The notes under the pieces are model-generated. The model worked only from the letters and a program-made list of their open reading frames with translations, had not been told where the DNA came from and made no database searches. 64,000 nucleotides of DNA, from IMG/VR virus record IMGVR_UViG_3300025890_000021, positions 26,404-90,403 of that record. One strand, given 5' to 3'. Every line of letters begins with the position of its first letter. Position 1 is the stretch's first letter. The translations under genes and the position numbers were made by a program. Below, one piece after another: positions 150-27,112 of the stretch. The stretch comes from a virus (taxonomy: Duplodnaviria; Caudoviricetes).

Positions 150-542
150 TTAGAATTTATTTTTCCATTTTTTAGAATATTCTTGTTTTGCCCAATTCTC
201 AGCTTTTCTTTCCCATTTATTTGCCCAATATCTATCTTTTCCATCTAAATCAGCTATGTTAGAAGCCTGTGAATATTTTTTCATAAACTTTCTTCTACCC
301 ATTTTGTATATTTGTTTAGCATGATGAATCTCATGTAAGATAGTAATGATAAATTCAGAAACCTTTGGATAGTATTTGTTTAGATAGATGGTATCAGTAT
401 CCCAATTATAACCACCCTCATCTTTACCATAAGTACCAAACTTTACTTTAGATTTTAAATTATAGTATTTAACTAACTCAGAAGCTACAAATAGTAAATC
501 AGTTCTTTCTTGTAATAGATAAATTTCTTTCAGAGTTGTCAT
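150..542 (-). CDS. HExxH zinc metallopeptidase-like protein
   Basis: ILHEIHHA zincin motif with downstream WERKAE glutamate. Confidence 0.55.
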   Translation of the reverse strand: MTTLKEIYLLQERTDLLFVASELVKYYNLKSKVKFGTYGKDEGGYNWDTDTIYLNKYYPKVSEFIITILHEIHHAKQIYKMGRRKFMKKYSQASNIADLDGKDRYWANKWERKAENWAKQEYSKKWKNKF

Positions 543-1171
543 TTCTTCATACTCTGAGCAAGGAACTTAGCAACTTTCTTTCCATATACTTTATCAGATG
601 GATAGTGTGCCTTTGCAACAATTCTACTATGTGCAATATCTTCCCCCAATTGTTTATACTCATCTCCATGTGTTGGGTCTATACTAGCTAAGTACTCACC
701 AATCAAATATCCTTGTATTGCATGTCCACTTGGATAACTTGGTGTTTTCATACTATCTAATTCAGTACCATTTAAATCAATGTTATAAAACTCTGCAACT
801 TGAAACGGTCTTGGACGATTATAATGATATTTCAACGCCATAATAAACTTACCACTTTCTTTTATAATTCTTCCGAGTATTTCGTTTGATACACTAAGTT
901 CGTGTTTCTCAATTAATGGTATAAATACTTCTTTAACATCATCACCAAATTTAACAAACTCCTCATTAGGTTTTATTTTTGCTAATTGTTTAATCTCTTT
1001 TAATGTAAGGTTAGAATCATTCTCAGGTGGTAACTTTTTTGGTACTACCAAGTTTTCATCAAAGAGAGAAGTTCTCATTTCCATTCTCTTCTTATGTTTC
1101 GGTTTAACTTCTTCATCGGTCTTGTAATATCCCATTGTACGAAGTTCTAATAGTTCTTTTAATTTAATCAT
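539..1171 (-). CDS. PAP2 / acid phosphatase-vanadium haloperoxidase superfamily protein
   Basis: Three PAP2 motifs: KYHYNRPRP, PSYPSGH, SRIVAKAHYPSD. Confidence 0.85.
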   Translation of the reverse strand: MIKLKELLELRTMGYYKTDEEVKPKHKKRMEMRTSLFDENLVVPKKLPPENDSNLTLKEIKQLAKIKPNEEFVKFGDDVKEVFIPLIEKHELSVSNEILGRIIKESGKFIMALKYHYNRPRPFQVAEFYNIDLNGTELDSMKTPSYPSGHAIQGYLIGEYLASIDPTHGDEYKQLGEDIAHSRIVAKAHYPSDKVYGKKVAKFLAQSMKK

Positions 1172-1412: not shown

Positions 1413-1559
1413 TTATCTACCCCAACGATTTTGTTGTTGTGAATCAGGATTTTTTGCTTTCCACTTCTTATGTTGGTTAGCAGTACGACCTTCTTTTTTC
1501 CACTTTTCGTTTAGTTTTTGTTTTTTTTGTTTTCTTATTTTTGCTGCACTATTTGGCAT
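1413..1559 (-). CDS. small basic protein (48 aa)
   Basis: Hand translation MPNSAAKIRKQKKQKLNEKWKKEGRTANQHKKWKAKNPDSQQQNRWGR fills the gap exactly; GGAG upstream. Confidence 0.55.
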   Translation of the reverse strand: MPNSAAKIRKQKKQKLNEKWKKEGRTANQHKKWKAKNPDSQQQNRWGR

Positions 1560-1560
1560 C

Positions 1561-2310
1561 TTATCTCCAATCCCATATTTTTAACATATTATACGATACA
1601 CCAAATCCAATTACTGGTTCTGTTAATCCTGTCTTAGAATCATATATTATCCCAGCAAAAGGACCAACACTTATCTGATTTCTCGGTGGTTTTAATTTTA
1701 GGGGACTTCCTTGTCTACCACTAATTCTCACACCATTAAATAAAGTGTCTGGTACAACTGCATAATATTCACCTTTTATTTCACCTTGCTCTATGTAAGG
1801 TAAACCCATTTGTAAACTTCCATCTAATCCGAGTTCAGTTTCACTATCGGTCAATATTCCATCCTTTATTAAATATCCAGTCCTACCGAAAATTCTTAAA
1901 TAATTTCCTTGTACACCGAACTCTTTTTCGAATGGTATTACCCCACTGGCATCACCTACTTTAACCTCTTGGGTCTGTGTAGGTAACTCATTAATAAGTA
2001 TCTTGATACTATCAATTTCCGTTTCTAATATCTCTAACTTCTTCTTTAACGAATAGTTCTCAATACCACGAGTTTTATCATGTGTATGTAAATCAAGTAA
2101 TAAATTTTCATTCTGTTTTGTTAATGTATTGACTGTATCATTTAACTCAACAATTAACTTATCCTGTCTAGCAGAATCTTCTCTCAAGAAATCCATTTCT
2201 TCTTGAGCGTAATAATAACGAATACCCACAATACATAGAATGAAGAGAATGTTTAGGAATCCACCTAATACCCACTCTCTTCTTTTTTGTGGCCAATCTT
2301 TTAATAGCAT
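1561..2310 (-). CDS. membrane-anchored coiled-coil protein with C-terminal beta-hairpin
   Basis: N-terminal TM helix, heptad-rich segment, C-terminal VGPFAG..VIGFGVSY strands. Confidence 0.6.
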   Translation of the reverse strand: MLLKDWPQKRREWVLGGFLNILFILCIVGIRYYYAQEEMDFLREDSARQDKLIVELNDTVNTLTKQNENLLLDLHTHDKTRGIENYSLKKKLEILETEIDSIKILINELPTQTQEVKVGDASGVIPFEKEFGVQGNYLRIFGRTGYLIKDGILTDSETELGLDGSLQMGLPYIEQGEIKGEYYAVVPDTLFNGVRISGRQGSPLKLKPPRNQISVGPFAGIIYDSKTGLTEPVIGFGVSYNMLKIWDWR

Positions 2311-2318
2311 ATTAACTC

Positions 2319-2837
2319 CTATTCAACACTATTTACAGCATCATTGATGGCTTTTCTAATTGCACCACCCAACTCAGTATTTCCAAAGTCTGCTTCTTCC
2401 TCGATTTGTAATCCAGTAGCAGTTACATTAGTTTCTATCTCACCAGTCCCACGAAATATTTTTTGTGTTCCCTCAAGATTATTGACTAAATTAACATGAA
2501 GATTAACTTGTGTTTTTTGATTTCTTCTGTTAAATAATCCAATAATACTAAATGCTTCATTTGGTTTACCAATATAAAGTACTTCTACATTAGCAGTAAA
2601 ATCTGCATTATCATCTTCAACTAAACGATACCTTGTATTTTGAAATGATTCCTCAACTAATTGTTTAATACCCATAGTAACTCTACTATCAGCAACACCA
2701 ATTGATTCATCGGTTTTTACGAATTGTGATACTTTCAATGTAGGCCAATCGAGGTCTTCACCAACAACAACTGGCTTTGGTAAATCTTGTGAAAAACCAA
2801 ATCCCATCATTAACAATATCATAATCAGTTTTTTCAT
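2319..2837 (-). CDS. exported CsgG/TolB-N-like alpha/beta protein
   Basis: Start reassigned to MKKLIMILL after AAGGAG; signal peptide; helix-RLVE-beta pattern shared with 3840..4481. Confidence 0.5.
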   Translation of the reverse strand: MKKLIMILLMMGFGFSQDLPKPVVVGEDLDWPTLKVSQFVKTDESIGVADSRVTMGIKQLVEESFQNTRYRLVEDDNADFTANVEVLYIGKPNEAFSIIGLFNRRNQKTQVNLHVNLVNNLEGTQKIFRGTGEIETNVTATGLQIEEEADFGNTELGGAIRKAINDAVNSVE

Positions 2838-2847
2838 TTTCTTCTCC

Positions 2848-3834
2848 TTAAAAGTAAGTCCCAAATAGTATACTGAAAGATTTTCCTCTTTCACCATAGT
2901 CATTCACGACCGTGTTAAATCCAAAACTCACACCTACATTAAAGGTGAATGCCTGTCCTAATTTCCAGTCTGCGGAAATAGTTGGAAAGAACATAATTGG
3001 ACTTCTCAGTAATAAATATTGAGAATCTCGATTTAATCCACCATAATATCTAAGTAATGTGTAAGATGTATAGTTTGCAAATGTAAACTTAATCATCTTT
3101 AAATCAATTGGAATCACCATACCATGTAATACTGAAAGGTTTCCAAATGTATTATCACTTACACTTCCAAAACTTGTGGTTAGTACAATAACTTCTGATT
3201 GTGGTTTAATCAGAGATTTTGCATAAGAGGTAGATACTAACCAATCCCACCCCTCAAATGTTTCAAATGCTACACCCGTACCACTTATCACTTGATTCTG
3301 CTTCTTCGAAATAAAGTTAATACCTTGTCCGTAAGTACCACTAAATCGTGTGAAGTCATCGGTGAATGAGAAATTACCATCGTACCTACTCTTACCATCA
3401 AATGATGTTCTTGTGTACACACTATTAAATGTGGTAACCCAACTACTATCCACACTTGGTGAACTTTTTATAGCATAATTTACTTGTGATGGTTGGTTAC
3501 TTATATCACCTTTACTAAATTGTTCTGTAGCATTTTGTGCAAGTGCACTCGCCAAAATCTCTTCAGCAACTCTTACTGCACAAGGAAATAAATCTTCGAA
3601 ATCATTGTATACATTCTCTGCCCATAATTCAAGTTCTCCTGCAAGAACTTCTTCTAATGTAAAAAATCTTGATTTATTATAGTAGGAAACATAGAATCCA
3701 TTTCCATCTTGTTGTACCCTATAGTTATTTCTTACAATCGTCTGATTACAAGGGTCAACATAATTATAAAAAAAACCTTGTGCAGAGAGTAAACTACAGA
3801 ATAATCCTATAACTATTAATACTCTCTGCCACAT
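2848..3834 (-). CDS. putative outer-membrane beta-barrel protein
   Basis: Signal peptide, alternating amphipathic strands in the C-terminal two thirds, terminal aromatic (SILFGTYF). Confidence 0.6.
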   Translation of the reverse strand: MWQRVLIVIGLFCSLLSAQGFFYNYVDPCNQTIVRNNYRVQQDGNGFYVSYYNKSRFFTLEEVLAGELELWAENVYNDFEDLFPCAVRVAEEILASALAQNATEQFSKGDISNQPSQVNYAIKSSPSVDSSWVTTFNSVYTRTSFDGKSRYDGNFSFTDDFTRFSGTYGQGINFISKKQNQVISGTGVAFETFEGWDWLVSTSYAKSLIKPQSEVIVLTTSFGSVSDNTFGNLSVLHGMVIPIDLKMIKFTFANYTSYTLLRYYGGLNRDSQYLLLRSPIMFFPTISADWKLGQAFTFNVGVSFGFNTVVNDYGERGKSFSILFGTYF

Positions 3835-3839
3835 TCATT

Positions 3840-4481
3840 CTACCAACCTCTACGGTCTATTGCTTTAATTACATTTACAACCGCAGTTTCCATTGCCTTA
3901 TTTGAGGCGGAACTTAAAGAACTCTGATTCCATTCCATATTTGGATTTTTTAGGAATCCTTGACCTATTGTGGAAGCTCTTCCTTGACCACTACCAACCA
4001 CATACTGAGTATTTTCATTATTGATTACTTTAACTTGAATACCAACAATAGTTTCGTTTATTGTTTGAACTTTCCCACTCTTGATATCTTCTTGTAAGTT
4101 AACAGCAAAATCATAAATAGTTACATACGCAGTGTACTTGGTTTTCTCTATTTTTGCTTCGTTGGCTTTTAAATCGTTGATGATAGATAATTGTACATCT
4201 CTATCTCCCTCAACAAGATTAAATCTTCCAATGTAAGAAATAACATTTGCAAGTTCTTGGTTTAACCCAAATGCAACTCGTTTATTTCCAAGTTCTGGAT
4301 ATTGTTCTTCAAGTTCTTTATTAAATTTAACATCCAAAATCTTTAGATTATCAACTTTAGTTATTTCAATTTCATCTAATGATTTCTGTTTCTCATACTC
4401 ACCAACATATTGTTCCGTTGATACTGATGCTGCACATCCGTATAAACCTATTAAAAACAATATTGAGAATATCTTATTCAT
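3840..4481 (-). CDS. CsgG/HfaB-like lipoprotein
   Basis: Lipobox LYG-C at Cys16; GRFNLVE..RD segment and VGIQVKVIN..VVGSGQG strands typical of the CsgG family. Confidence 0.65.
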   Translation of the reverse strand: MNKIFSILFLIGLYGCAASVSTEQYVGEYEKQKSLDEIEITKVDNLKILDVKFNKELEEQYPELGNKRVAFGLNQELANVISYIGRFNLVEGDRDVQLSIINDLKANEAKIEKTKYTAYVTIYDFAVNLQEDIKSGKVQTINETIVGIQVKVINNENTQYVVGSGQGRASTIGQGFLKNPNMEWNQSSLSSASNKAMETAVVNVIKAIDRRGW

Positions 4482-4494
4482 TTTTATCTCCTAT

Positions 4495-4875
4495 TTATCT
4501 GAAATCCGATAACGGGTCTTTCAGTAGTTTTTCCAATCGTTCAATCTCACCATTTAATTTATCAATCTCATTCTGTAGTTTAATTATATCTCCATCATAT
4601 GATTTTACTTTTGGCGTTTTTAATCCATCTACTTTTTCTCGTAGATATTTTAATTCTTCATCAATATTTTCAAAGTTATTGGTTACAATTTCTATATCAC
4701 TTGCTTCTGCAAATCCTTGTACTACTTCTTCCAATGAATCAATGCGGCCAGTAAAACTATACCACCCAGCAATTGCGGTAGAAAGAAAAGTAACAATAGC
4801 AATAATATTGTTAATTGATACTCCGAACTTTTTTCCTTTGACTTCTTCAATAGCTTGTTCTATATCCTTTGCCAT
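4495..4875 (-). CDS. TM plus coiled-coil protein
   Basis: One hydrophobic helix followed by heptad repeats. Confidence 0.6.
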   Translation of the reverse strand: MAKDIEQAIEEVKGKKFGVSINNIIAIVTFLSTAIAGWYSFTGRIDSLEEVVQGFAEASDIEIVTNNFENIDEELKYLREKVDGLKTPKVKSYDGDIIKLQNEIDKLNGEIERLEKLLKDPLSDFR

Positions 4876-4951
4876 TTTATTTCTCCTTAATTAACATTCA
4901 CAGCAAGAGCAATTACAACTCTCACATTTACATTCTTTACAATCACACATA

Positions 4952-5818
4952 CTATATCTCCACATTAATAGTTAGTAACATTGAATCTTTCAATGGATGT
5001 GTATCATCACCTGATATAAATCCTAATCCAACATTGTATTTATCATACTCGAATCCCATACCTATTGATGGATAATTCAACTGATGGTCTACATCACTAT
5101 AATATCCTGCTCTGAACCAAAACATATCTTTTAAGTTATATGATAAACCTTGTCCCATAGTATAGTATCCACTATAAATATTCCATTGATTATAAATATC
5201 CCAATTATTAATAGGTATTTTTACACCTACATTCAAACTTGTTGGAATCTCAATTTCATATCCATTCATCTTAGTCATTATACCGACATTAGCAATCATA
5301 ATATCCATATCTAATTTTTTCCAAAAATCATCCATGTGAATACCAACATCGAATAACATACCATCAGTTTTTTCTGTATATAAATCGTGAAAGACTACTT
5401 TACCCTCTACACCTATTGATACACTATCCAACTTATTACCCTTATAATATAAAGGTGTACCCCAACTCACTCCGAGTTTGGTGGTTGTTGGTGCAAACGA
5501 ACCATTGACTGTTCCATATAAATCAGTCGATTTCTGTTCTCCGTAATCAAAGTGTAAAAGGTTAAAGCCAAAACTCTTCCATCTTACATCAATATAGTTA
5601 TATCCCATATCATCTACGATATTCTTTAACCATTGTACATTTGTAAAACTTACATTGGTTGTAGTATCAAGATTGAAATGGTTTTTTGCGGGATTTCTAA
5701 ATGCAAGTGATTGGTTCCCCAATGTTGTTTCTTCTGCAGATGGTGATATCGTTAATACACGATTAACCTGTCCAAATAGAGAAGTTACAAACAACAAACC
5801 TAATATTACTTTTTTCAT
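4952..5818 (-). CDS. PorV/PorQ-family (FadL-like) outer-membrane barrel
   Basis: Signal peptide then LTISPSA..LG..A..NPA, VSFT..QWL, FDYG..STD..G...GSF pattern of PorV family. Confidence 0.7.
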   Translation of the reverse strand: MKKVILGLLFVTSLFGQVNRVLTISPSAEETTLGNQSLAFRNPAKNHFNLDTTTNVSFTNVQWLKNIVDDMGYNYIDVRWKSFGFNLLHFDYGEQKSTDLYGTVNGSFAPTTTKLGVSWGTPLYYKGNKLDSVSIGVEGKVVFHDLYTEKTDGMLFDVGIHMDDFWKKLDMDIMIANVGIMTKMNGYEIEIPTSLNVGVKIPINNWDIYNQWNIYSGYYTMGQGLSYNLKDMFWFRAGYYSDVDHQLNYPSIGMGFEYDKYNVGLGFISGDDTHPLKDSMLLTINVEI

Positions 5819-5829
5819 TATCTATCCTC

Positions 5830-8481
5830 TTATTTAACGACCGTAAATTTATTGGCCTTAATTTTATTTCCACTCTGTAAAACAAATATATAAACACCTG
5901 GTTCTAAAGTTTGGTGTTCTTGATAAACACTAACTTCAGGTAACCAAACACTTGGTTCATTTGAAAAATCAAATGTGTGTATACCTGGTTCTACACTCTC
6001 ATCTAACAATGTTCCAACATATTGTCCATTAGAGTTTAGTATGTAAAGTTTTACATCTGACAACTCTTCAACATAAAATTGGAATCTTGTATTTTCTCTA
6101 AATGGATTTGGATAGTTATAAGTTAGCTCATTCTCTTCTGGTTCTCCACCACCGAATGCCCAATATTTATTCCATACCATCACTTTACCACTCTGTCTAC
6201 TCACTAATAAATCTTGACCACTTGGATTACCAGCAGCATATTTATCAACGAAGTTTACAGGTGCTTCTGTCCACTCTGCATCAGGAAAATCTGCTCTGAA
6301 TAATAATGTTAGAGCATTTATCTGACTATCTATCCAATAAGTTTGTGGTGCGTTACCTGGTGAATAATCCATACCACCAAATGATACTTTCTGTTTACCT
6401 TGTATTGGTTCGTGTACATTCACATAAGTGAACCACGGCCCTGGTAAGTTTCCAGTCTTCATATCAACAAACTCTAATTCATTAGAATTAAATTCTACTT
6501 CAAACTCAAATCCAGCAACATTTACTTGTTCTGGTGTTAGAGTGAATGGTACTTCAATAATATCACCACTACGAACTCTGACTGTGGAATCTGCAGGTAA
6601 TGTCATAAACACATCAGGTGTATTAAATGCAATTTTGTTTGCCCAAGTACTTGGTGGGTTACCATTACCCCAACGATAATATGTATCGCCATTTATATCA
6701 ATGTATCCATCAGTACTTCCTACATCTTCAATATCGAAATCATCACCATCTGATGTTGAACCTGCTTCTTTTACTTTAGTACCACTTGCGTTTACATCTC
6801 CTGTAAAGAAGTATGCTAAACTATCAATTGTGTAATCTGGATTAACATCATTTCCATATGTAGATGAACCACCAGCAAAACCAATATCTAAGGTATCTAA
6901 ACCAGTCTGAATATCATCCATCAATGGATTGATAACTTCAATCTGTCCAAATTGTAATGTAGTATCTTGGTCAAAATCATCATCTTTGAATATAGTAAAC
7001 TCATATCTTTGATTACCCCAATCTTCATAGTATCCATAAGGAAATGGTTCACCACCCTCTTTTAGTGTATCGATAGTTGCCCAACTCTGTAGTGTATCAC
7101 CATTTAAGTGAACATATGTATCAATGATACCACTTGTGTATGCCCATAAGAAATATGCATCATTTAATTGGAATACATCATCTCCATCCACATCACCAAT
7201 AAAGTATTCAACTGCGTTTAGTGTATCTACACCTGTAACAGATTTAAACTTATTACTTTGGAAATTAAATGCTGCAATAGCATCGTTGATGTTTGTAATT
7301 CCATATCTATCCAATGTTAATGGTGTATGTGATTCAATATCATCACTAGCATCTGGTGGATAAAATGACATACGATATTTTTGGTTTCGTGGTAACTGAA
7401 TATTATAATATCCTCTATCATCTGTGTATGTAGAATCAAAATAACTTACTCCTAAGAAACCCTCACCTGGTAGCGTTTGTGCTGCAGTAGTTCCTTTATC
7501 ATCAAACCAAAATGTAGATGTATCATCACCAATGACATCATCGGTTGTTGTTTCATCAGTTAAGTTTGCTTCATTATCAATATCTTCAATGTTGTACCAA
7601 CTATTGTATTCATCTGGATTACTTTGGTCTAATTCAAATCTAATCTTCCAATAAGGATAAGTGTTATCATTAGTTATTGCATTATCTTGTGCATACCTAA
7701 AGTATCCCTCAACATCAACAAGTTTTGGATGTAGAGAAATATCTCCTCTTGCACCACCTTGGTCTGTTTCTTCCGTACCATAATTACCATCAATGTAAAC
7801 ATCGTAATCTAATAAGTAATCATCACTTATATAAGTGTAGTATCCCTCACCACCCTCATATAATGTTGGTACTCTAAAAGAACGCGGACTGAAATCATCC
7901 ACAACATCTTCTATTTTAAAATTTAATTTTACTAATTGTTTTTGAACACCCTCTCCACCACCAAAAGTAAATTCATCACCATTGTGTGATACCATTGTAA
8001 TTCTTAACCAATCGTATCTTGCATTAGCTTCTGATTTTTCACTATCAGCAGTTTGTAAAGAATCGATATATCCAACATCGGAATAGTGAACAACTTCATA
8101 TGAATAATCAGCTCCTGCGGTAGAATCACCCTCAGTTGCTTGAGTTAACCATGAACCTTTTAATACTTCAGTATCTTCATCATCCCAATCAATTATATCG
8201 TTATCAAAAATAATATCTAATCTTAGTGCAGTAACATCAGCACCATCATCATCAAGTGTAACTTCCATAGTCATTACACTATCTCTCCAAGCATCAAAAT
8301 TATTATTATACAAAGCAGGATTATCTTTATCATCTGCTAAGTAAGTTTGTAATTGATGCGTAACACTTTCTCTCCACCAATACTCTGGTGTATCATAAGT
8401 GCCAGTTTGCATAATCCTAATGACGGGTTCTTGTGGGAAGACAAAACCCAACCACATTAGGCCTATTATCAACCATCTCAT
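5830..8481 (-). CDS. T9SS type-A CTD cargo protein with cohesin-like and dockerin-like modules
   Basis: Signal peptide; C-terminal NYPNPF..VKLYILNSNGQYV..LEPGVYIFVL..KFTVVK; two cohesin-like segments; GDVDGDDVFQLND Ca-loop. Confidence 0.75.
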   Translation of the reverse strand: MRWLIIGLMWLGFVFPQEPVIRIMQTGTYDTPEYWWRESVTHQLQTYLADDKDNPALYNNNFDAWRDSVMTMEVTLDDDGADVTALRLDIIFDNDIIDWDDEDTEVLKGSWLTQATEGDSTAGADYSYEVVHYSDVGYIDSLQTADSEKSEANARYDWLRITMVSHNGDEFTFGGGEGVQKQLVKLNFKIEDVVDDFSPRSFRVPTLYEGGEGYYTYISDDYLLDYDVYIDGNYGTEETDQGGARGDISLHPKLVDVEGYFRYAQDNAITNDNTYPYWKIRFELDQSNPDEYNSWYNIEDIDNEANLTDETTTDDVIGDDTSTFWFDDKGTTAAQTLPGEGFLGVSYFDSTYTDDRGYYNIQLPRNQKYRMSFYPPDASDDIESHTPLTLDRYGITNINDAIAAFNFQSNKFKSVTGVDTLNAVEYFIGDVDGDDVFQLNDAYFLWAYTSGIIDTYVHLNGDTLQSWATIDTLKEGGEPFPYGYYEDWGNQRYEFTIFKDDDFDQDTTLQFGQIEVINPLMDDIQTGLDTLDIGFAGGSSTYGNDVNPDYTIDSLAYFFTGDVNASGTKVKEAGSTSDGDDFDIEDVGSTDGYIDINGDTYYRWGNGNPPSTWANKIAFNTPDVFMTLPADSTVRVRSGDIIEVPFTLTPEQVNVAGFEFEVEFNSNELEFVDMKTGNLPGPWFTYVNVHEPIQGKQKVSFGGMDYSPGNAPQTYWIDSQINALTLLFRADFPDAEWTEAPVNFVDKYAAGNPSGQDLLVSRQSGKVMVWNKYWAFGGGEPEENELTYNYPNPFRENTRFQFYVEELSDVKLYILNSNGQYVGTLLDESVEPGIHTFDFSNEPSVWLPEVSVYQEHQTLEPGVYIFVLQSGNKIKANKFTVVK

Positions 8482-8556
8482 CGTAGTTCCTTTTCAGTTA
8501 TTTTAATCTATGTCAACTCCCACTCGATTGGTGGGTTTGGTGTAGCCTTAATTCAC

Positions 8557-8568
8557 AATAATAAATAT
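8557..8568 (-). promoter_or_regulatory. WTAYTTATWW motif upstream of the envelope cassette
   Basis: ATATTTATTATT on the coding strand about 80 nt before the ATG at 8481. Confidence 0.45.
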
Positions 8569-8592
8569 AATATATAAAAAAATAATGATGTG

Positions 8593-9600
8593 TTATACAT
8601 CAAATCTTACAACAATCGAAGTATTGATATCGTTACCTAATTTGATAGGTTTTGCCAATTTACCAATAACTAATAATTCATTGTTATCATTGTATAAACC
8701 GACTGTCGTTACATATGGTTTGAAATCTGAATGTGATACAAACCCTTGATATCCACTTGCTTGTGTGTAAGATGTTTTGTAGCTTCCTGTCCCTGCACCT
8801 GTTGGTTGGTCTGAAGGTGCGAAGAACTTGTGTATGTCCGTTGAACCCTCTGCTACATTTATACTGCCACTTAAATTTTCAGTTGCAGATTTATTTGTGA
8901 TTAAGTTAAATTCACCTGGTTCGATTGTAACCAAGTATTCGTATTCGTAAATTGTTTGTGTTGCTTGAAAGTTCAAATCAAATGTAGTATCACCTGCATT
9001 TAGTAATGAACCTGTATCTGTAAGTACAACTAATCCATGTGAGTAAAAAGCATTACCCACTTGTGAACCACTTCCGTTTGCTATGATTCCTTGTGTTCTA
9101 TCAAATGAACTTGATTTATAAGCTGCGTAACTTGCTGAATGAGCAAAATCATAAATGTTACCATCACCATCATCTCTTAATTGATAAGTCTTTCCACCAT
9201 TCGTTACATCTAAATTAATACTACCTGGTTTTAATTCTTCACCAAATAGTTCTTGTGGTATAGTAAATATTTTTGCATTACCATGTAGTTCTCTTTTTTC
9301 TACTTGGTAATTATTTCCACCGAATGTTCTGTATGGTTCAAGATTTTCATAGTACAAATGTTTTATACTAAACCAATTTGGTCTATCATAATATGTACCA
9401 TATTCAAACTTGGAAGAACTACCATGAAACCGACCGAATGATTGTGAGGCAGCACTTCCAGTATTGAAATTAAATAGTGAACCACTCTCAGCGTTTAGGC
9501 GTAAGAATCCACTTCCACTATCGTTTTGATTTAAGAACCATTTCTTATGAACTTTGAATGGTCTTATTGACTTATCTGATGGGTCAATGTTTTTTAACAT
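8593..9600 (-). CDS. virion structural protein, tail-collar-like C-terminus
   Basis: VTTVGLYNDNNELLVIGKLAKPIK motif; paralog of 9613..10620; in tail module. Confidence 0.55.
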   Translation of the reverse strand: MLKNIDPSDKSIRPFKVHKKWFLNQNDSGSGFLRLNAESGSLFNFNTGSAASQSFGRFHGSSSKFEYGTYYDRPNWFSIKHLYYENLEPYRTFGGNNYQVEKRELHGNAKIFTIPQELFGEELKPGSINLDVTNGGKTYQLRDDGDGNIYDFAHSASYAAYKSSSFDRTQGIIANGSGSQVGNAFYSHGLVVLTDTGSLLNAGDTTFDLNFQATQTIYEYEYLVTIEPGEFNLITNKSATENLSGSINVAEGSTDIHKFFAPSDQPTGAGTGSYKTSYTQASGYQGFVSHSDFKPYVTTVGLYNDNNELLVIGKLAKPIKLGNDINTSIVVRFDV

Positions 9601-9612
9601 TTATAAATTCCC

Positions 9613-10620
9613 TTAGAAGTCAAGTTTAACTTTTATTATAGCTTCCCTTGAATATGATTTCAAAATAGGTTTACTTAACTTAGCAACTGCTAACAACTCA
9701 TTCTCATCATTGTATAAACCTACTTGTGTAATAAACACTTTAGGGTCTTTGAAGAATGTTGAGTTTGTTAGAGCACCATCTGAGCCTGTAAAGAATGTTG
9801 GGTTTGCACTAAAGTTATAATCTTTGTTTAGTACCCTACAGAAGAAGTTAGTAGAACTAATCTCCTCTTCTCTACGAACTTGGAAATAGTTAGCTGCTAC
9901 AATTTTGTTATAAAACTTTCTTGGATTGTTAGCAAACGCATCGGCATTTCTACCAGTACCAAATGCTACAGTCTCATCTAAGTAGGTTGGATTAAATAAT
10001 AAGATTCCTAAATCAGGATAAAAGGAACCAATCGCACCACCTGCTTGACTTGCTGCTGCTGTGTTAACAACTCCAACACCAGTTTCTAATGAACCACTAA
10101 CAATGTTAAATACTCTACCACCCTCATTGACTGTTGGATTATTTGTTGCTCCACTATCATCAATGAATTTATGGCTACCTAATCTGAGTTCCCAATTACC
10201 TGGGTCAATCTTTTCTCTCATTCTTGCTCTGTTAAATGCTACGAAGTAAAATTCTTCTGATGCACTTGGAGCACTTGTGAAAGTAAATTTCTCAGTAGAT
10301 GGTGGAAGTAATACATTTGCAAATTGTCTATAATTTGCTGCACTTTCTCTACCACCCGTTGTTAACTTTGTTGTGTTTCCTGCCGAACCACTTCCACCAA
10401 AATGAGCATATCCAATATCAAATTGTATTTCTGCTGTTGATGGACTTGATGCAGGGTCTTGATGAAAGATATCCAAATAAGAACCTGTTGCGGTTTGTGT
10501 AGAACTTGTAAAGAACGAAGTTAATGTTCCTGTCCCACCACTAAAAATACCACTTGATACTTTTACCTTTTGGTTTTCAACTACATCGTTTTGTCTATCG
10601 AATCTTGTAAATACTGACAT
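9613..10620 (-). CDS. virion structural protein, tail-collar-like C-terminus
   Basis: ITQVGLYNDENELLAVAKLSKPILK motif; paralog of 8593..9600. Confidence 0.55.
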   Translation of the reverse strand: MSVFTRFDRQNDVVENQKVKVSSGIFSGGTGTLTSFFTSSTQTATGSYLDIFHQDPASSPSTAEIQFDIGYAHFGGSGSAGNTTKLTTGGRESAANYRQFANVLLPPSTEKFTFTSAPSASEEFYFVAFNRARMREKIDPGNWELRLGSHKFIDDSGATNNPTVNEGGRVFNIVSGSLETGVGVVNTAAASQAGGAIGSFYPDLGILLFNPTYLDETVAFGTGRNADAFANNPRKFYNKIVAANYFQVRREEEISSTNFFCRVLNKDYNFSANPTFFTGSDGALTNSTFFKDPKVFITQVGLYNDENELLAVAKLSKPILKSYSREAIIKVKLDF

Positions 10621-10630
10621 CTCTCACTCC

Positions 10631-11389
10631 TTATAATGTACTTGGGTCTGCTTTGATTGTTACCGCGATGTTAAATGTAGCACCTGTGGATAAACCAGTG
10701 ACCGTTAAGTTGGTTGAAATATCTGATGTTACAGAACGAGAAACAAGGTTAACTGATTTACCTTGTAAGGTAATAGAACGCTTTCTTTCCTCTTCATCCA
10801 AGAATACTGGAGTAGTTGCTCCAACATTTGTTTGTAAGTCTGCAATTTCTTCTTTTTGTATAAATTCTAACTCATCTAAGATTTTAGCAGCTGCAAATCC
10901 TTGTCCACCTTTTAAGAAAGGAAGTTGTCTGAATCTCTTCTTCTTCTTTTTCTTCTGTACTATGACTGGTGTTAAGTTTGCAATTGTTGCATCATGTAAT
11001 GTGAAAGAATATCCTGCTTCACTATCACTTCCATTTCGTGTGTTAGGTGTAATTGTTTGTTGTACACCTGGTCCGTTGAATTGTAAGTTTGGTGATGGAA
11101 CTTCCAAGATTGGAAGTTTCGCAGTGTTCTTTGGTAATGATACCAATTTGAATCTCATTATTTGATTCTCGTCTACAAAACTCTCTAACAATGGCATGTT
11201 CTCGATTACAGCTCCATAATAGTTCGAACCATTAGGGTGGGATGTATCCCATAATCTGTAATCTACTTCATCATCTGCCAATGCGAATTTTGTAATTTTA
11301 AACTCGTCTTGCCCTCTTGCCAGTAATTCTCGACCTTTCTTGGTAAGAACAGCATCGACGGTTATGCTTGTGTTATTTAAAAATCCCAT
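10631..11389 (-). CDS. virion structural protein, tail-collar-like N-terminus
   Basis: VLTKKGRELLA..KITKFALADDE resembles tail-collar fibre N-termini; Lys-rich insert. Confidence 0.5.
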   Translation of the reverse strand: MGFLNNTSITVDAVLTKKGRELLARGQDEFKITKFALADDEVDYRLWDTSHPNGSNYYGAVIENMPLLESFVDENQIMRFKLVSLPKNTAKLPILEVPSPNLQFNGPGVQQTITPNTRNGSDSEAGYSFTLHDATIANLTPVIVQKKKKKKRFRQLPFLKGGQGFAAAKILDELEFIQKEEIADLQTNVGATTPVFLDEEERKRSITLQGKSVNLVSRSVTSDISTNLTVTGLSTGATFNIAVTIKADPSTL

Positions 11390-11435
11390 TATTTTTACTC
11401 CTGATTGTATTTTGAACTGAGATGGATAGTGTTCC

Positions 11436-11446
11436 TATATAAATAT
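11436..11446 (-). promoter_or_regulatory. WTAYTTATWW motif
   Basis: ATATTTATATA in the gap upstream of 11389. Confidence 0.45.
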
Positions 11447-11461
11447 AACATCACTTACTTT

Positions 11462-14400
11462 TTAATCAACTTTTAACTTGGAATCGCCTGGTTCTTGAGT
11501 TACAAGTTTTGTAGGTGAAGTTATTGTTATTTCAACAGGTTCCTTACCATCAATAGTATTATTTTTCGTTAATAATTCTTGTTTGTAAAATAATCTAAAT
11601 AGTTTAGATTCATATGCTACACTTTGAAATTCTGCTGGTGCAAATGATGAACTATATGATTCACCTCTTGATGCACTTGCCTCACTTGAATAAAAGAATT
11701 CTTTTATTTCATTGTGTTCTGATATTCGTGATGCACTAACAAAAGGATTGAACGCCTCTTCAAATGTAGGTTCTATATCTCCCTCTGTTATACTTGCCGT
11801 TGCATATAAATTCCCATAATCACTTCTTGGGTCTATTTGATTAATTTTATTTAATGTAGGTATTCCTAATGTTCCAAGTGAACCACTTTCGAGATTGTGT
11901 AAATTTACATCTCCATTATATGTTGTGTACTCACCATGAAAACGATATGGTATAGGTTCTGCGGAACTACTTAATCTACTTGTTAATTGTATACCATTAT
12001 CAAAATGTCCTGCGTTCTCATAATATACATTATCAAACTCAGGTATCTTACCTACTACTTCTTTACTTCTTTCTAAAAGATTAGGTTCTATTAATAAACC
12101 TAATGTTGTATTTGCTCTTGCTGGAGCTAATTTTAATAATTGGTCAAATATACTTCTATCAAAGAAGTTTATAATTCTCATGTAATCCCAAAAGTTATTA
12201 CTACGAGAATACTTTTTCCAATAATCTCTTTGTACTTTATCTAACCCACGATATCCTATTCTGTATTGGTCTCTTGGGTCTCCGATTTCATTATCAAGAT
12301 TTATATCTGCTAATGAATACATAATATCTTCGTTCACCACATCAACTGGTGAAAAGAACACACCAAGTTTATTACTATCTATTGGTGCAAAACTTTGTGC
12401 AGAAACTTCTTGTCTAATATTAGAAGAAAGATTACCAAGTAGTTTCGTGTTCTCTGTTCTAATCTTTGTTGCGTTTCTTCTTGCTGGTCCAATATTTGGA
12501 ACTTTCATTTGTTCTTTATCGGATATACTTCTAAATAAATTCTCACTATATCCAACCGCACTCGCACTTGCAAAGTAATTAGTTTGATATGATTTATCAT
12601 CTAACTGATAGTTTGTTCCACTACCTAAATTACTATTCTCACCCAATGGTAATCTGAATATTAAGTTATCATACATGGAAGATGTTGTGTTACCATTGTA
12701 TGCTTTTGGTGCCATTACATGATTCTCAAATACACTTTGTGATAAAGGTTCACTCCATAATCTGAACTCCATCAAAGAACCACTAAGTCTTGTCTTGTGG
12801 AATTTATCATTATGTCCACCAACCCACAAGTTAGCACTTTGAGTAAATGCACCATTAATATCATTTGATGTTGTAGATAAACTTGATGAGTTAGAGTATA
12901 CAATTACTTCTCTTGATGCATCATATTGTCTTGCAGTTAACTCATATGTTACTTCTTGTGAAACATCATCCGATGTTAAATCTGCACCACTTGATGATTT
13001 TCTTGTTAACATCACACTAAACATATCATCATTGTATACAGGTAGTAAAGAAGAAGTTACAAATGTATTTCCACTACTTCCACTAATACTAAACTGAACT
13101 CTACCAAGATTATCAGTTGCTCCGTTATCAAGTAATTCTATTGCCCAATTATTTTCTGATTCAACAATAACTTGATTTTGTGATTTAGGACTTCTAAATC
13201 TAAATTCAATTGTTTGTGGTTTTATATTACTAACACTATCGTTTGTCCATGGCGTTAGTAAATACTGACTTGACCTAAAATCTAATGCGTATGTAAACTT
13301 CCTTTTTATTTCATAACTTACTCTATCATTTAAATCTGGTCCACCATATTCTCTAACTCTTAGTAATGAACTTGGTATACCATAACAATTCATCAATCCT
13401 TTCATAGCACGGACAGTACCTTTGTTCTTCATAAAGAAAGGTAAGTTAGATAAAATTCTTTTCCATATTTCTTCTGTTAATGCTTCACTTGGTGTTTCAT
13501 TTAATGCTGCACCACTTGAATCTTTTCCTAACAAGTATGTTGGTAGAATAACTAAATCATTTCCACTATTAACTTCAAAACCCATATTCTTTGCAATTTC
13601 TTTTACAATATCCTTTGAGATACCCTCTGATACTTTAGGTACTCTTTCATTTACATCTGTGAAGTGTCTTAAGTAACTCCATATCTCATCAAATTGTTCA
13701 CCCACCATATCCATAAAATCTAAGAACACTTCGTTTTGTGTATCTTGATTTACATGAGCAGGTAATTGATTTGTTAACCTATCCATGTTTGCTCTATCAT
13801 ATTCTCTTGAGTAACCAATCCAAGTATTCCACCATGCGGTAACTTGAGAACTTGATGTATGATAAAGTGTGTGTGGTTCAGTAGAACTTTCTTTTGGCCA
13901 ACTAGCATCATAGAACTCACCAAGTGAACTTGATGCATAACTTGATGAGACTGTATATAAAAAGTTTTCATATGGACCAAATGAGTTTATCACTTGTCTT
14001 TTCTTCAAATCAAAATCTGCTTGTGTTTCACCAGAACCTGTAACATTTGATATTGATAATGAAGATGAAGTATACTTCTCTACTAATTCTACTTTCTTTC
14101 TAAAATTTCTTAATCTTGTTTCTGCCGAACTAAAGTTAACAAAGTTACCAAATCCATAATCGGTTGTTTCACCATCTGCAGATAATTTTTCAGTTCGTTT
14201 TTGGTAATCAATATTTAATTGTACATCAAGTAAACTACTTGAGTGAACTGAGTTTATAATCTCTTCATTGGTTGAACTATCACTACTTAATAGGTCATCA
14301 TATTTTTTATAATTTGTACCTCTAAAGTTTATTGGATTTGAAGTAGAGTTTAAGTTAGGAACTCTAAGAAATAAATACTCATCATCTTCTTCAACAAATG

Positions 14401-17131: not shown

Positions 17132-18310
17132 TTATCTCACCACTTTAAATATGAAGTCATCATCGTATATCATTGAAGTTTGGTCTGCTCCACTACCACT
17201 AACTACTTTGATTTCAAATCTATAAAATCTTTCTGGTTGAAATCCATCCATCCATAAGTTAAAGAAGTTACCTGTAGAATCACAACTCACAATTGAACCT
17301 GTACCGAATGGTATTATTGTATCTTCGGTTTCGGCATCTCTTACAGAATAATAAGTACCCTGTCCTAAACTTCTACTACCACTTGGTAAAAACTTAACAG
17401 TCAATGCTGCTGGTGTAGTATCGAATCCACGAGTAGGATATAGTTCACGACCAGTGAATCTGAATTTTACTTTTGATTTTTCCTTGTACTCAGGTTTTAA
17501 ATTATTGAAATAAATTTTTAATCTATCTAAATCAGTAGAACTCAATGCTGTTAAACTACCAGTAGCGAAACTTGAATCATCCCATTCTACTTCTAACTTA
17601 GGTGGATAGATTGTATGTGTTTCTCTTGAAAAATATTTTAATTGACCTTGTGGTGTAGAGTTACCCTCTGCAGAACCTGTAGCAGTTGTTGGGTCAAAGA
17701 TACTATACATACTCTGTGATGTTACAAGGTTTTGTCTCTTAACAATAAATCCATTGTTTGGATATGTTGAACCACTATAAATATGGTTCTTAACCAAATC
17801 ACTAATATCCATTCTAATATCACGAGTTTCATAAACTAAATCTTGTGATGAACTTACCTCGTATGTAGCTGCTAAACTTGATGTAAACCAAGTTCCACCT
17901 TGTGTTGTACTACCACTAACCCATTCAGTTTTTGTTGTATCATTATCACGATACTTCCAACTAGCACCATCACTTAGTGCTGGGTCTCTATCTTTAGTGC
18001 CTGTACCACCTGCCCAACTTCCACTTACCATGTAAGTAAATAAAGATTGTTCTACTGCTAATTCTTCTGAACTAGCATCATATAAATTTAAATAATATTT
18101 TGCATCACTTGGAATTGTTCCACTTTGTACTGATGATGAAATATATGAATAATCAAATTTAATTAAAATCCTTGAAGCATTAATTGTAGTACCTGAAGAG
18201 TTTACATGCTTTTCCACTTCTAATATTTGGTCTAAACCTGTATTGATTGAAGATGTAACATTACCCTCATAAATTGTTGTGTCTGTTGTTGGATATTCAA
18301 AATAATACAC
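17132..18310 (-). CDS. putative baseplate-associated structural protein
   Basis: Position in baseplate operon; beta-sandwich-like SRILIKF..LNLY..NNGFIVK..PKLEVEW pattern. Confidence 0.5.
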   Translation of the reverse strand: MYYFEYPTTDTTIYEGNVTSSINTGLDQILEVEKHVNSSGTTINASRILIKFDYSYISSSVQSGTIPSDAKYYLNLYDASSEELAVEQSLFTYMVSGSWAGGTGTKDRDPALSDGASWKYRDNDTTKTEWVSGSTTQGGTWFTSSLAATYEVSSSQDLVYETRDIRMDISDLVKNHIYSGSTYPNNGFIVKRQNLVTSQSMYSIFDPTTATGSAEGNSTPQGQLKYFSRETHTIYPPKLEVEWDDSSFATGSLTALSSTDLDRLKIYFNNLKPEYKEKSKVKFRFTGRELYPTRGFDTTPAALTVKFLPSGSRSLGQGTYYSVRDAETEDTIIPFGTGSIVSCDSTGNFFNLWMDGFQPERFYRFEIKVVSGSGADQTSMIYDDDFIFKVVR

Positions 18311-20280
18311 TATACATCTCCTATTACTCTACCCTCAATATCTGTATTAGGGAATTTTAGTTCAAATATGCTTGGGTCTAATGATGAATATATGATACCA
18401 TCTTTTGTTGCTGATTGAACATCGTAAATGTGTCCACTATACCCATCTTCAGTTCTATACTTATTATCCACAACTACTATTTGTTTGTTTGGATTATCGT
18501 CTTCGGGTGGTACAACACTTGCCACACCATCTACTAAAGAAATCTTGTAGGCAATATCACTCAACACTATTGGTTGACTAATCTGCCAGTTATCTGTATT
18601 GAAATGTTTTTTAACAGCATCAATACATCTTAATAATACTTCGTTCTTGTTAAATCCTCTTTGTGTTATGATACTAAATCTAACACCGATATTAACAATA
18701 TACCCATCTTTAATATTAATTGCATCTGTTACCATTCTGTATTGTGATAAGTAAACTCTAAGGTTTTGTTTCACAACATCATTTAGTGCAACTAATTTTT
18801 TCTTACCATCATAACCCAACACATACATATTTAATGCAAGTGGATTAGGTATCACACTTGTGTTTGGTTGTTTAACAATTCTACCTTGTTTCATAATGGT
18901 TTGAGTATTGACTTCTAATTGTTCATCTTGAACTAAAAATACTTTTGCAACTGCACCATATTTTTGTGGTAGTGAATAAACTCGGATAACATAATCTTCT
19001 TTTGTTACTGCACGATTCTGTGAAGCAAAATGTGCTGAAGCATTTTGTCTAACCTCTTCAGGTGATTCACCCGAACTACCACCAGTTGCTGGTTCGTTGT
19101 TTATTATTGATAAACTATCTTTCGTTTCTTTTACTTTTGTAGAATCTAATCCATCCTCTTCAAGTGATGTACTTAGTGTATCAAGATTTTTGATATCACC
19201 ACTAACAACATTATCCACTTGAGAACCACCATAAGTATAAGTTACAGTCAATGTAATATTACTTGGTGCTTGTCCAAACGCTTTTGTTTTTAAGAAATTA
19301 CTTGGGTCAAATGATTCATCAAGTTTAGATAAACCTGTACCAAGTGAACTACCAACATTATCTGGATTAGGTATAATCTCTTCATCTGCATTTGTAGATG
19401 TTCCTGCACCAAATCTTAATTCTGTTTTTCCATCACTTCTAATATATCGAGTAAAACGATTTGCAGATTTTACTAACTTTAATAAGAAAGGTGCTGCTTG
19501 TGAATTAGCAGATACATCAGGTGAGTTAATAGAATTGTTTTCGATATCTTGGAAGACAGTATCTTGTGCTAAGAAAGGAACTTCATACCATGTGTTTCCA
19601 TCATCATCCGTTACTGAAGTAATCTCAATAACATTCTCTTTACTTAAAATAATTTTATCAAATTTTATAGCATCACTAAAAACAAAATCCTCAGAAGTTT
19701 TAAATCCACTTTCTAATGTTGCTTTTTTTGTAAGAGTATAATGTGTTGGTGTATCACCATCGTTTTTAGAAACCACATCTTTTCTTGTATCAAATGAAGA
19801 TGAGTATTTAAAATTAACATCATCCATCAATCTAAAACTTCTACCACTCTTACTTGAGAATATACTATCTGCATTTACTTTCAATGCATAATTTAAATCT
19901 GGTTCGTAAGTATCACCAACATTAATTGCTGGAACTTGTAAACTTAAATCACATATTGCAGTTGCAGGTGTACTTAAGTTTGGTTTATATCCAAATGATT
20001 GTGCAATCTTAAAAATGTTTTTCTTTTCTTCAGCAGAATGTAATAGTGTTTCACGATATTGATTATCAACATAGTAACTCAACATATCACCAACATAAGA
20101 TGCCATTTCAATAAACATCATACCAGGTGATGATTCGTTAAAATCATTGTATGCGGTTGGATAGTATGATTTCGCAAACTCAATAAGGTTCTGTCTTATT
20201 GAACTGAAATCTCTTCCAATATACTTTACTTTCTTCTTTTCTTTTTTAATATTGGTTCCGTATTCTACATCCAAAGCCAT
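18310..20280 (-). CDS. baseplate wedge subunit (T4 gp6 / gpJ-like)
   Basis: YIGRDFSSIRQNLIEF..DFNESSPG.MFIEM.SYVGD, GGSSGES.EEVR, QNRAVTKEDY. Confidence 0.85.
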   Translation of the reverse strand: MALDVEYGTNIKKEKKKVKYIGRDFSSIRQNLIEFAKSYYPTAYNDFNESSPGMMFIEMASYVGDMLSYYVDNQYRETLLHSAEEKKNIFKIAQSFGYKPNLSTPATAICDLSLQVPAINVGDTYEPDLNYALKVNADSIFSSKSGRSFRLMDDVNFKYSSSFDTRKDVVSKNDGDTPTHYTLTKKATLESGFKTSEDFVFSDAIKFDKIILSKENVIEITSVTDDDGNTWYEVPFLAQDTVFQDIENNSINSPDVSANSQAAPFLLKLVKSANRFTRYIRSDGKTELRFGAGTSTNADEEIIPNPDNVGSSLGTGLSKLDESFDPSNFLKTKAFGQAPSNITLTVTYTYGGSQVDNVVSGDIKNLDTLSTSLEEDGLDSTKVKETKDSLSIINNEPATGGSSGESPEEVRQNASAHFASQNRAVTKEDYVIRVYSLPQKYGAVAKVFLVQDEQLEVNTQTIMKQGRIVKQPNTSVIPNPLALNMYVLGYDGKKKLVALNDVVKQNLRVYLSQYRMVTDAINIKDGYIVNIGVRFSIITQRGFNKNEVLLRCIDAVKKHFNTDNWQISQPIVLSDIAYKISLVDGVASVVPPEDDNPNKQIVVVDNKYRTEDGYSGHIYDVQSATKDGIIYSSLDPSIFELKFPNTDIEGRVIGDV

Positions 20281-26258: not shown

Positions 26259-27112
26259 TATTTTTTTTCATTTATTGATTTTAAATACGAACCACCTATA
26301 TTCCAAAAGAGTGTCTTACCCTTTAGTGTTTCAATATTCTGTTCTAACCAATACCATTGTTTCTTGTCCCAAAACTCATTACAATCAAATGGTACTTCGT
26401 AATCATCCATCATATCATCAAACGCGTAAGGTGATTTCTCAAGTATAACATTTTTTAAATCACCTGCATGATTCTCATTTAAAATCTTTTTTGTTGATGA
26501 GAAAGCACTCATCGTTATAGAGTAAACTTTTCTTGATTCAGAATCTAACTTCCACCAATCATCTCCATACTCTAAAAATTCTTTTATCAATCCACTTGCA
26601 GTAACTCCACTACCGATACTAACTACAAGGTTATCATATTCCCTACCTTTTAAAACTTCTCTCATTCTTGCCCCCATATAACTAATGTATGCGGGATGAT
26701 TGAATGCATATGGTAATTGTTGCCAACCATTCTCTTTTGCTTGTGTGTTCAATTTGTTCTGCATGAATGCCATCATGTTTGGTCTCATAGGATGTAACTT
26801 ACCACCATTACCCTCAACTCTTTCCAATAATATTTTTGGAAACCTTTCTGTATTAGGATACGCAGAAATAAATTCTATACCATACTCTTTACATAATTGT
26901 GATAGTGTCCAACCTGTCCAACTCCCATAAACTGATAAGTGTGTTAACGGCTTTGATTTATCAATACTATCACTTTCTAATATTCTTCTGATACCCTCTA
27001 TCTTTGACCATCGTGGAAATGTTACACCATCTCCAACTAAATCATCTCTCTTGACATCGACATCAATACCCTTAAGTGAATATGTTTCAATTGGTGTTTG
27101 TATTAAGTCCAT
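26258..27112 (-). CDS. PLP-dependent fold-type II enzyme (ACC deaminase / D-cysteine desulfhydrase-like)
   Basis: VKRDDL..SKI, LVVSIGSGVTASGL, LFWNIGG. Confidence 0.65.
   Translation of the reverse strand: MDLIQTPIETYSLKGIDVDVKRDDLVGDGVTFPRWSKIEGIRRILESDSIDKSKPLTHLSVYGSWTGWTLSQLCKEYGIEFISAYPNTERFPKILLERVEGNGGKLHPMRPNMMAFMQNKLNTQAKENGWQQLPYAFNHPAYISYMGARMREVLKGREYDNLVVSIGSGVTASGLIKEFLEYGDDWWKLDSESRKVYSITMSAFSSTKKILNENHAGDLKNVILEKSPYAFDDMMDDYEVPFDCNEFWDKKQWYWLEQNIETLKGKTLFWNIGGSYLKSINEKK

Follow-up and report, generated by a model that had tools for sequence, protein, structure and literature searches.

A 64,000-nucleotide segment of the virus record IMGVR_UViG_3300025890_000021 (Duplodnaviria, Caudoviricetes; positions 26,404 to 90,403 of the record, hereafter the window and numbered from its first letter) carries seven tightly packed minus-strand genes, 8481-1561, directly after genes for tail-fibre-like 335-aa proteins. 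Our analysis indicates that these genes form a conserved phage operon, the products of which probably, on balance, are exported from the cytoplasm of a Bacteroidota host and come together in the host envelope as a display pair and a trans-envelope assembly. The display pair would consist of a type IX secretion system (T9SS) cargo protein and a truncated barrel of the PorV/PorQ family, while the trans-envelope assembly would comprise two proteins of LptE/CsgG/PelC fold, a second barrel and two coiled-coil stalks. An initial annotation had described seven contiguous, co-oriented genes beside the tail module, and all of these open reading frames (ORFs) are present. In order of transcription they are as follows.

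5830-8481, minus strand: g883, T9SS cargo of 883 aa, with TIGR04183 and Pfam Cohesin matches above cutoffs
4952-5818, minus strand: g288, truncated PorV/PorQ-family outer-membrane barrel with signal peptide, 288 aa, assigned by NF033709
4495-4875, minus strand: g126, predicted inner-membrane anchored periplasmic coiled-coil protein, 126 aa, with a transmembrane (TM) helix at ~21-41
3840-4481, minus strand: g213, predicted outer-membrane lipoprotein (lipobox LYGC) of LptE/CsgG/PelC fold, 213 aa, from an AF2 model and Foldseek
2848-3834, minus strand: g328, 328 aa, signal peptide and a putative C-terminal outer-membrane beta-barrel ending in Phe, from a low-confidence model
2319-2837, minus strand: g172, predicted periplasmic paralogue of g213 with a signal peptide and no lipobox, from hhalign and homologue starts
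1561-2310, minus strand: g249, predicted inner-membrane anchored coiled coil with a beta-rich C-terminal domain, 249 aa

Every product bears a readable export or membrane signal, in agreement with the initial annotation. These signals were judged by reading the sequence directly: g883, g288, g328 and g172 have signal peptides, g213 has the lipobox, and g126 and g249 each have a single N-terminal TM helix followed by a coiled coil. The intergenic spacers are 5-13 nt, the single exception being the 76 nt from g288 to g126, and the operon is flanked by gaps of 111 nt (AT-rich, upstream) and 148 nt (downstream). For five of the seven cassette proteins, nothing useful came from Pfam, PHROGs or PADLOC, the matches of g126 being coiled-coil noise only.

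Conservation of the operon in marine phages

The complete order (cargo, PorV-like barrel, TM coiled coil, lipoprotein, barrel, paralogue, TM coiled coil with beta domain) recurs in five other viral contigs, L003, L005, L031, L034 and L045, even at 24-32% identity of the PorV-like protein. Identities to the window proteins in three of these contigs are given below, in per cent.

g883: L005 60, L031 58, L034 55
g288: L005 62, L031 32, L034 24
g126: L005 95, L031 48, L034 51
g213: L005 91, L031 34, L034 36
g328: L005 68, L031 43, L034 40
g172: L005 67, L031 40, L034 39
g249: L005 67, L031 32, L034 37

Since the same order is kept in contigs so diverged, the arrangement is, by sequence comparison, far beyond chance. 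Genes of the g328 type are found in 31 viral contigs, and 47 IMG/VR contigs carry a PorV-like gene related to g288. That dozens of uncultured marine phages retain the cargo-barrel pair and the five-gene outer-membrane module across deep divergence argues for strong selection.

The assignment of the block to a phage is well founded. The window is AT-rich and codes on a single strand, with a uniform GC content of 30-37% and with GC and skew even throughout. Its genes include one for a baseplate wedge protein of the gp6 type (phrog_6 and phrog_10646, E 1e-20), one for a virion protein, likewise by PHROG, and many metabolic ones. The window is DNA of an uncultured, marine, AT-rich myovirus. Megablast of 20 kb of the window against isolate phages returned no nucleotide match. 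One IMG/VR contig, L002, shows 99% protein identity and was taken as the same phage, and close relatives are very common across marine metagenomes, including Tara, on contigs of up to ~145 kb.

Outside the uncultured set, the core of the module is shared, in the same order, with the Flavobacterium phage vB_FspM_immuto (gp015-gp019, NC_055915), where it consists of a signal peptide-cohesin-C-terminal domain (CTD) protein, a small TM protein, a CsgG-like lipoprotein, a barrel and a paralogue. The immuto gp015 is a minimal version of the first of these, at 243 aa; gp017 is 27.6% identical to g213 (E 8e-23), the C-terminus of gp018 matches the g328 barrel (87%) and gp019 is homologous to g172 at 96%. 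The immuto cassette differs in having no PorV-like gene and in the addition of lectin and nuclease genes. Among the five, the immuto record names only gp015 (cohesin domain-containing protein), gp016-gp019 being listed as hypothetical proteins.

The presence of this core in a cultured phage argues that the block is not chimeric host DNA, and an assembly chimera or a recent capture of host chromosome has a practically negligible probability. A 9-kb contig bearing the cassette was binned in a Flavobacteriales metagenome-assembled genome (MAG), as such a capture might have it, but this contig has the same phage gene order. The block with its flanks recurs in dozens of viral contigs, and the evenness of GC and skew in the window likewise speaks against it. 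Even the nearest PorV-family proteins of cellular organisms share no more than 22-29% identity with g288, which argues that this gene is not a recent capture, and a profile of the g213-family, CsgG-like lipoproteins was not found in 150 other Flavobacteriales-order genomes. By its distribution, therefore, the block is not host DNA but a mobile module that phages have long retained.

Several signals point to a marine Flavobacteriia-type bacterium as the host. All four signal peptides of the signal peptidase I (SPI) type (g883, g288, g328 and g172) are followed directly by Gln, and this residue is invariant in the alignments. Gln after the signal-peptide cleavage site is the Bacteroidetes-specific Q-rule (PMC5837995), which was previously noted for P. 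gingivalis phages (PMC10367356). Together with the T9SS signal on g883, the kinship with immuto and the contig in the Flavobacteriales MAG, these signal peptides favour the suggested host.

The baseplate protein, encoded at 18310-20280 (minus strand), has its nearest isolate relatives in Microcystis phage Mel-JY01 (46% identity) and immuto (38%). Mel-JY01 is annotated as a cyanobacterial (Microcystis) phage, whereas the signals in the window indicate a Bacteroidota host; either the lineage spans phyla or the Microcystis host assignment merits a second look. Mel-JY01 is without the cassette, its place being taken by additional genes of the tail-fibre-like kind.

The T9SS cargo and its PorV-like neighbour

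Profile searches confirmed g883 as a predicted T9SS type-A cargo with a cohesin domain. The protein consists of a signal peptide (a hydrophobic N-terminus, then Gln), a beta-rich acidic region of ~600 aa, a cohesin (~630-770) and, after a GGG linker, a type-A CTD (790-883). The CTD, as the initial annotation had recognized, scores 26.7 bits on TIGR04183, where the cutoff is 23, over residues 790-881 of the 883, and a partial match to Pfam PF18962 falls below cutoff. Pfam Cohesin (PF00963) scores 25.4 bits against a gathering score of 24.1, with 46 of 139 profile positions covered. Homologues of g883 score 27-36 bits for the CTD and up to 43 bits for Cohesin; the shorter homologue in contig L010 (646 aa) has a full-length Cohesin match of 43.4 bits, and the g883 cohesin region aligns with the cohesin of immuto gp015 (E 2e-7). 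A phmmer search of g883 against the PDB gave nothing significant. Within the acidic region, two DxDxDG-type loops are invariant among the homologues. Because these loops sit ~130 residues apart and Pfam Dockerin (PF00404) matches neither g883 nor three homologues, the label "dockerin" is unsupported. A receptor-binding domain shared with g883 was sought in the giant tail protein nearby and in the protein that Mel-JY01 has at that position, and neither showed any similarity.

The neighbouring product, g288, scores 99.4 bits on the PorV/PorQ family model NF033709 (cutoff 90), with residues 21-287 aligned to profile positions 6-325 of 326, and its homologues score 77-95 bits. Against the equivalog models for PorV (NF033710) and PorQ (NF033711) it reaches only 52 and 45.6 bits, where the cutoffs are 250 and 220. 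A profile built from 15 phage homologues matches the solved F. johnsoniae PorV (6h3i_F) with an E value of 3.2e-14 in two stretches, and ~90 PorV residues (235-322) have no counterpart in that alignment. The closest cellular kin are a true PorV of Pontibacter (23% identity) and Marinimicrobia proteins (22-29%); among 50,697 isolate phage records, the PorV-like gene had no match. Judged by its sequence, g288 is a real member of the PorV/PorQ family, truncated and divergent, and an orthologue of neither PorV nor PorQ. Thus the family placement in the initial annotation was sound. The shuttle role it gave g288 must be tempered: because g288 lies far below both equivalog cutoffs, an anchor role, as in PorQ-PorZ and PorV-PorU, appears as likely as a shuttle role.

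Genes for shuttles or anchors linked to their cargo are an established T9SS pattern (PMC12618676). The known pairs PorV-PorU and PorQ-PorZ, which belong to the attachment complex, and type-B CTD cargo with a linked PorP/SprF (PMC12618676, PMC5562754), resemble the window pair in that a CTD protein gene here stands beside a gene for a PorV/PorQ-family barrel. The window pair differs in being phage-encoded and in its barrel, which is ~100 aa shorter and orthologous to neither PorV nor PorQ. Type-A cargo, moreover, is normally served by a single host PorV without a private partner, unlike the cargo here. By analogy with these pairs, we propose that g883 would be exported by Sec, then pass through the host T9SS translocon by means of its type-A CTD, and be retained in the outer membrane through g288, the truncated barrel that the phage itself supplies. 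The outcome would be a cohesin-bearing, Ca-binding protein displayed on the infected cell.

Phage genes with type-A sorting domains have been described for a cryoconite "Cryophage", for which the available text of Bellas et al. 2020 (PMC7468147) presumes hijacking of the host T9SS and suggests superinfection exclusion. As set out there, the cargo genes of Cryophage lie in metagenomic islands and specify variable enzymes as well as a PA14 protein, whereas the window cargo is a conserved cohesin protein, 55-60% identical across its clade (L005, L031 and L034). The available text makes no mention of a PorV-like barrel or of CsgG-fold partners for Cryophage.

The display of g883 on the cell has to be weighed against its presence on the particle, since the initial annotation had also raised decoration of virions. 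On that account the cargo or its partners would decorate particles or bind them after lysis; the operon does adjoin tail-fibre genes, and a cohesin could bind a virion partner. Yet all seven proteins have Sec, lipoprotein or TM export signals, which make a place on the virion unlikely, and in L010 the block is bordered by replication genes rather than tail genes. Nor do the proteins resemble the neighbouring tail proteins or match any PHROG structural family. We consider virion association very improbable.

The lipoprotein, its paralogue, the second barrel and the stalks

The initial annotation had called g213 and g172 CsgG-like. The fold is borne out, and the two are paralogues; neither protein, however, has a direct match to Pfam CsgG (PF03783) or to any other Pfam family at E values up to 1. 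An exhaustive phmmer search with g213 retrieved 100 relatives, and 11 of 33 aligned full-length relatives match Pfam CsgG (best 1.9e-17) while 5 of the 33 match LpoB. The link of g213 to Pfam CsgG, as traced by these searches, is therefore transitive only, through intermediate sequences. A profile of the CsgG-like relatives gave only chance matches among PDB sequences. The AF2 model of g213 (predicted local distance difference test, pLDDT, 78.8) shows the alpha/beta fold of a CsgG-type periplasmic domain (Foldseek/VIA) and matches PelC, CsgG, GNA1162, LptE and FlgT in Foldseek; its best structural matches are LptE-type lipoproteins that form no pore. The top viral structure match is annotated "uncultured Caudovirales CsgG". 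Modelling thus confirms the LptE/CsgG/PelC fold for g213, and g172 is assigned to it as a paralogue. In g213 the LYGC lipobox supplies the lipidation signal, and GC is in the consensus of its relatives.

The second of these proteins, g172, is a paralogue of g213, as alignments of the two families show in hhalign (A6 against A1; probability 98.3%, E 2.1e-14). Its start was placed too far upstream in the initial annotation; homologue starts show that Met23 of the 194-aa ORF is the true start, leaving 172 aa. With a signal peptide but no lipobox Cys, g172 is not a lipoprotein.

The fold raises the question of a channel. CsgG/CsgF "curli" genes are known from pelagimyophages (HTVC008M group) and from Methylophilales phage Melnitz, for which an outer-membrane channel was proposed (PMC9004378). 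The window resembles these cases in that they too are marine myoviruses with CsgG-clan lipoproteins and no curli subunits; CsgF, CsgE, CsgA and CsgB had no Pfam or NCBIfam match in the cassette. A CsgG-like ring with a barrel pore could then serve uptake, the timing of lysis or export, for instance of a nuclease or the cohesin protein, and g213 does share its fold with CsgG and PelC, both parts of outer-membrane export channels; its top viral structural match is named CsgG, and some relatives have added a secreted Endonuclease_NS to the block. The pelagimyophage and Melnitz proteins, however, match CsgG directly and were modelled with a barrel, whereas g213 reaches CsgG only via intermediates and shows no evident pore hairpins; there are differences in hosts and in partner genes as well (PMC9004378). 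Mature g213, at ~197 aa, is ~65 aa shorter than CsgG (~262), and its monomer model has one long hairpin (116-154) with a polar tip and no sign of the CsgG pore hairpins. A 12-strand barrel would also be too narrow for folded cargo, and the cargo already bears a T9SS signal. A channel of the proposed kind therefore seems unlikely.

The barrel in question, g328, is modelled with a small N-terminal domain, a long helix and a closed antiparallel barrel of about 12 strands that ends in an aromatic residue, as the initial annotation had expected of a Phe-terminated barrel. The model is weak (pLDDT 54.8 overall, 62-78 in the barrel region, where 11 strands are seen) and makes g328 a candidate outer-membrane beta-barrel at low confidence. 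Two Cys residues of the N-terminal domain (C29 and C85) are invariant among homologues, a pair that fits an oxidising, extracytoplasmic location. The lipoprotein and barrel complexes LptE-LptD and PelC-PelB differ from g213 and g328 in strand number (16-26 against about 12); the cassette proteins are, in addition, phage-borne and have no sequence-level membership in those families.

The two remaining proteins would anchor the assembly in the inner membrane. Five homologues share the TM helix of g126, and the 25 residues after it, without change. In g249, which has five aligned homologues at 32-67% identity, the last 45 residues, a beta segment, are nearly invariant (PPRNQ...TGLTEP...WDWR). Matches of g126 to known families are weak and of coiled-coil type, for example DUF2730 (E 5.6e-4), and fall below cutoff.

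These stalks invite comparison with spanins. If g126 and g249 were i-spanin-like and g213, with g172 and g328, their outer-membrane partner, the operon would be a lysis module that fuses or breaks the outer membrane late. A gene for a type-II TM periplasmic coiled coil lies immediately upstream of the outer-membrane lipoprotein gene in every relative, the operon stands at the end of the structural genes, which are probably late, and DUF2730, to which g126 has weak matches (E 5.6e-4 and 4.2e-4), is a phage family; these matches, however, are below cutoff and coiled-coil-like. Rz1-type o-spanins are short and unstructured. Although g126 has the shape of an i-spanin, g213 is a large folded alpha/beta domain of 197 aa, unlike such o-spanins, and no endolysin or holin stands beside the cassette in the window, L005, L031 or L034, where the neighbours are PAP2, zincin-like, NUDIX and primase genes. 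The spanin reading also leaves the cargo, the PorV-like barrel and the second barrel unexplained, and we regard a lysis function as improbable.

We therefore return to a display pair with a trans-envelope assembly. In this second sub-module g213 and g172, which share a ring-forming fold, the g328 barrel and the g126 and g249 stalks would make up a phage-specific assembly across the envelope. The inner-membrane coiled-coil stalks appear long enough to reach the outer-membrane parts, and the five proteins could form a stalk-tethered outer-membrane complex. Several observations weigh against the proposal as a whole. Divergence is much faster in the PorV-like protein (24-32% identity) than in its would-be cargo (55-58%). 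The module can do without the barrel, since relatives such as immuto and L010 encode the CTD-cohesin protein but lack a PorV-like gene. The model of g328 is of low confidence, and the host is only inferred.

As to purpose, we tentatively suggest that the products coat or mask the cell surface, thereby excluding superinfecting phages or sparing progeny from debris, or that they act in adhesion. Resistance to Flavobacterium phages maps to T9SS and gliding genes, according to the available text of a preprint (bioRxiv 10.1101/2020.10.02.323337), which favours masking and exclusion or adhesion. A bolder extension, which we think doubtful at best, is that g288 docks on SprA instead of the host PorV, so that phage cargo is exported preferentially and host CTD proteins, including gliding-adhesin receptors, are kept off the surface; the g213/g172 rings, the g328 barrel and the coiled-coil stalks would then be an attachment platform, a minimal analogue of PorK/N-PorG-PorM. 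If true, this would be a new superinfection-exclusion mechanism and the first virus-encoded secretion-system component of such a type.

The literature contained no report that we could find of a phage PorV-like barrel or of a T9SS cargo, a PorV-like protein and CsgG-fold proteins in combination, in keeping with the statement of the initial annotation that the combination matched no described system. Some of its parts had been described, phage T9SS cargo (PMC7468147) and phage CsgG (PMC9004378) each having been reported once or twice before. Bacteroidota phages are major agents of marine carbon turnover, and their manipulation of the envelope is little known. Should receptor masking or hijacking of the T9SS prove true, the operon would represent a new exclusion strategy and a natural probe of CTD recognition by PorV-family barrels. 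The core module in the cultured pair of immuto and Flavobacterium sp. LMO8 makes its function directly testable.

Variant cassettes, small reading frames and flanking genes

A reduced core is found in L010 and L011, comprising the cohesin-CTD protein, a protein with two TM segments, a secreted nuclease, a TM protein and the lipoprotein, and adjoining replication genes. The variant cassettes of L010 (3556-7425, plus strand) and L013 (3190-7699) include a nuclease with a signal peptide (Endonuclease_NS / NUC1) and a two-TM, holin-like protein of 104 aa. The 343-aa and 170-aa genes of L010 had been considered as barrel and paralogue by position; they are unrelated and were rejected. C-type lectin proteins are encoded beside the cohesin-CTD gene in immuto and in contig L009. 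In L034, a 95-aa 2x[4Fe-4S] ferredoxin gene (Fer4, E 2e-11; 6993-7280, plus strand) is inserted between the TM coiled-coil and lipoprotein genes, and L005 has an extra 114-aa gene inside its cassette (11330-11674, plus strand) that is not in the window, the product of which has a signal peptide, an extremely basic middle rich in His, Lys and Arg, and a C-terminal TM segment.

The seven genes of the initial annotation are accompanied by two small ORFs that it had missed. These and the other features in and around the operon are as follows.

8482-8592, minus strand: candidate promoter region, an AT-rich upstream spacer that contains a short hairpin
4891-4950, minus strand: ORF of 19 aa, preceded by its own GGAG and containing nine Cys arranged as CxC repeats, in the 76-nt spacer between g288 and g126
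1413-1559, minus strand: very basic ORF of 48 aa (Lys/Arg/Gln-rich), starting 2 nt past the g249 stop
150-1171, minus strand: PAP2-family phosphatase and zincin-like gene pair (L005 15463-16475; L034 10749-11782)
36338-36412 and 53076-53149, minus strand: two tRNA genes, Cys-GCA and Ala-TGC

Consensus scans for promoters and terminators gave no excess over shuffled expectation. Being shorter than 60 aa, the 48-aa ORF did not appear in the ORF list. At the place of the 19-aa ORF, L005 has an 18-aa ORF with seven Cys and a different sequence (10873-10929, plus strand), and in L031 no Cys-rich small ORF is present between the PorV-like and TM coiled-coil genes. The nine-Cys ORF is possibly a real metal-binding or disulfide-rich micropeptide.

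On the 3' side, the cassette is always followed by two overlapping genes, one for a phosphatase of the PAP2 family that is soluble (E 4.7e-10), the other for a zincin-like HExxH protein of 130 aa. The adjacency of a lipid or nucleotide phosphatase to an envelope operon may be more than coincidence. On the upstream side, the two 335-aa proteins (8593-10620, minus strand) have only a C-terminal motif of ~45 aa (…TTVGLYDD…KLSKPI…) in common with three Mel-JY01 proteins (L001 28984-33992), and this shared end resembles an attachment module that exchangeable tail-fibre-like proteins have in common.

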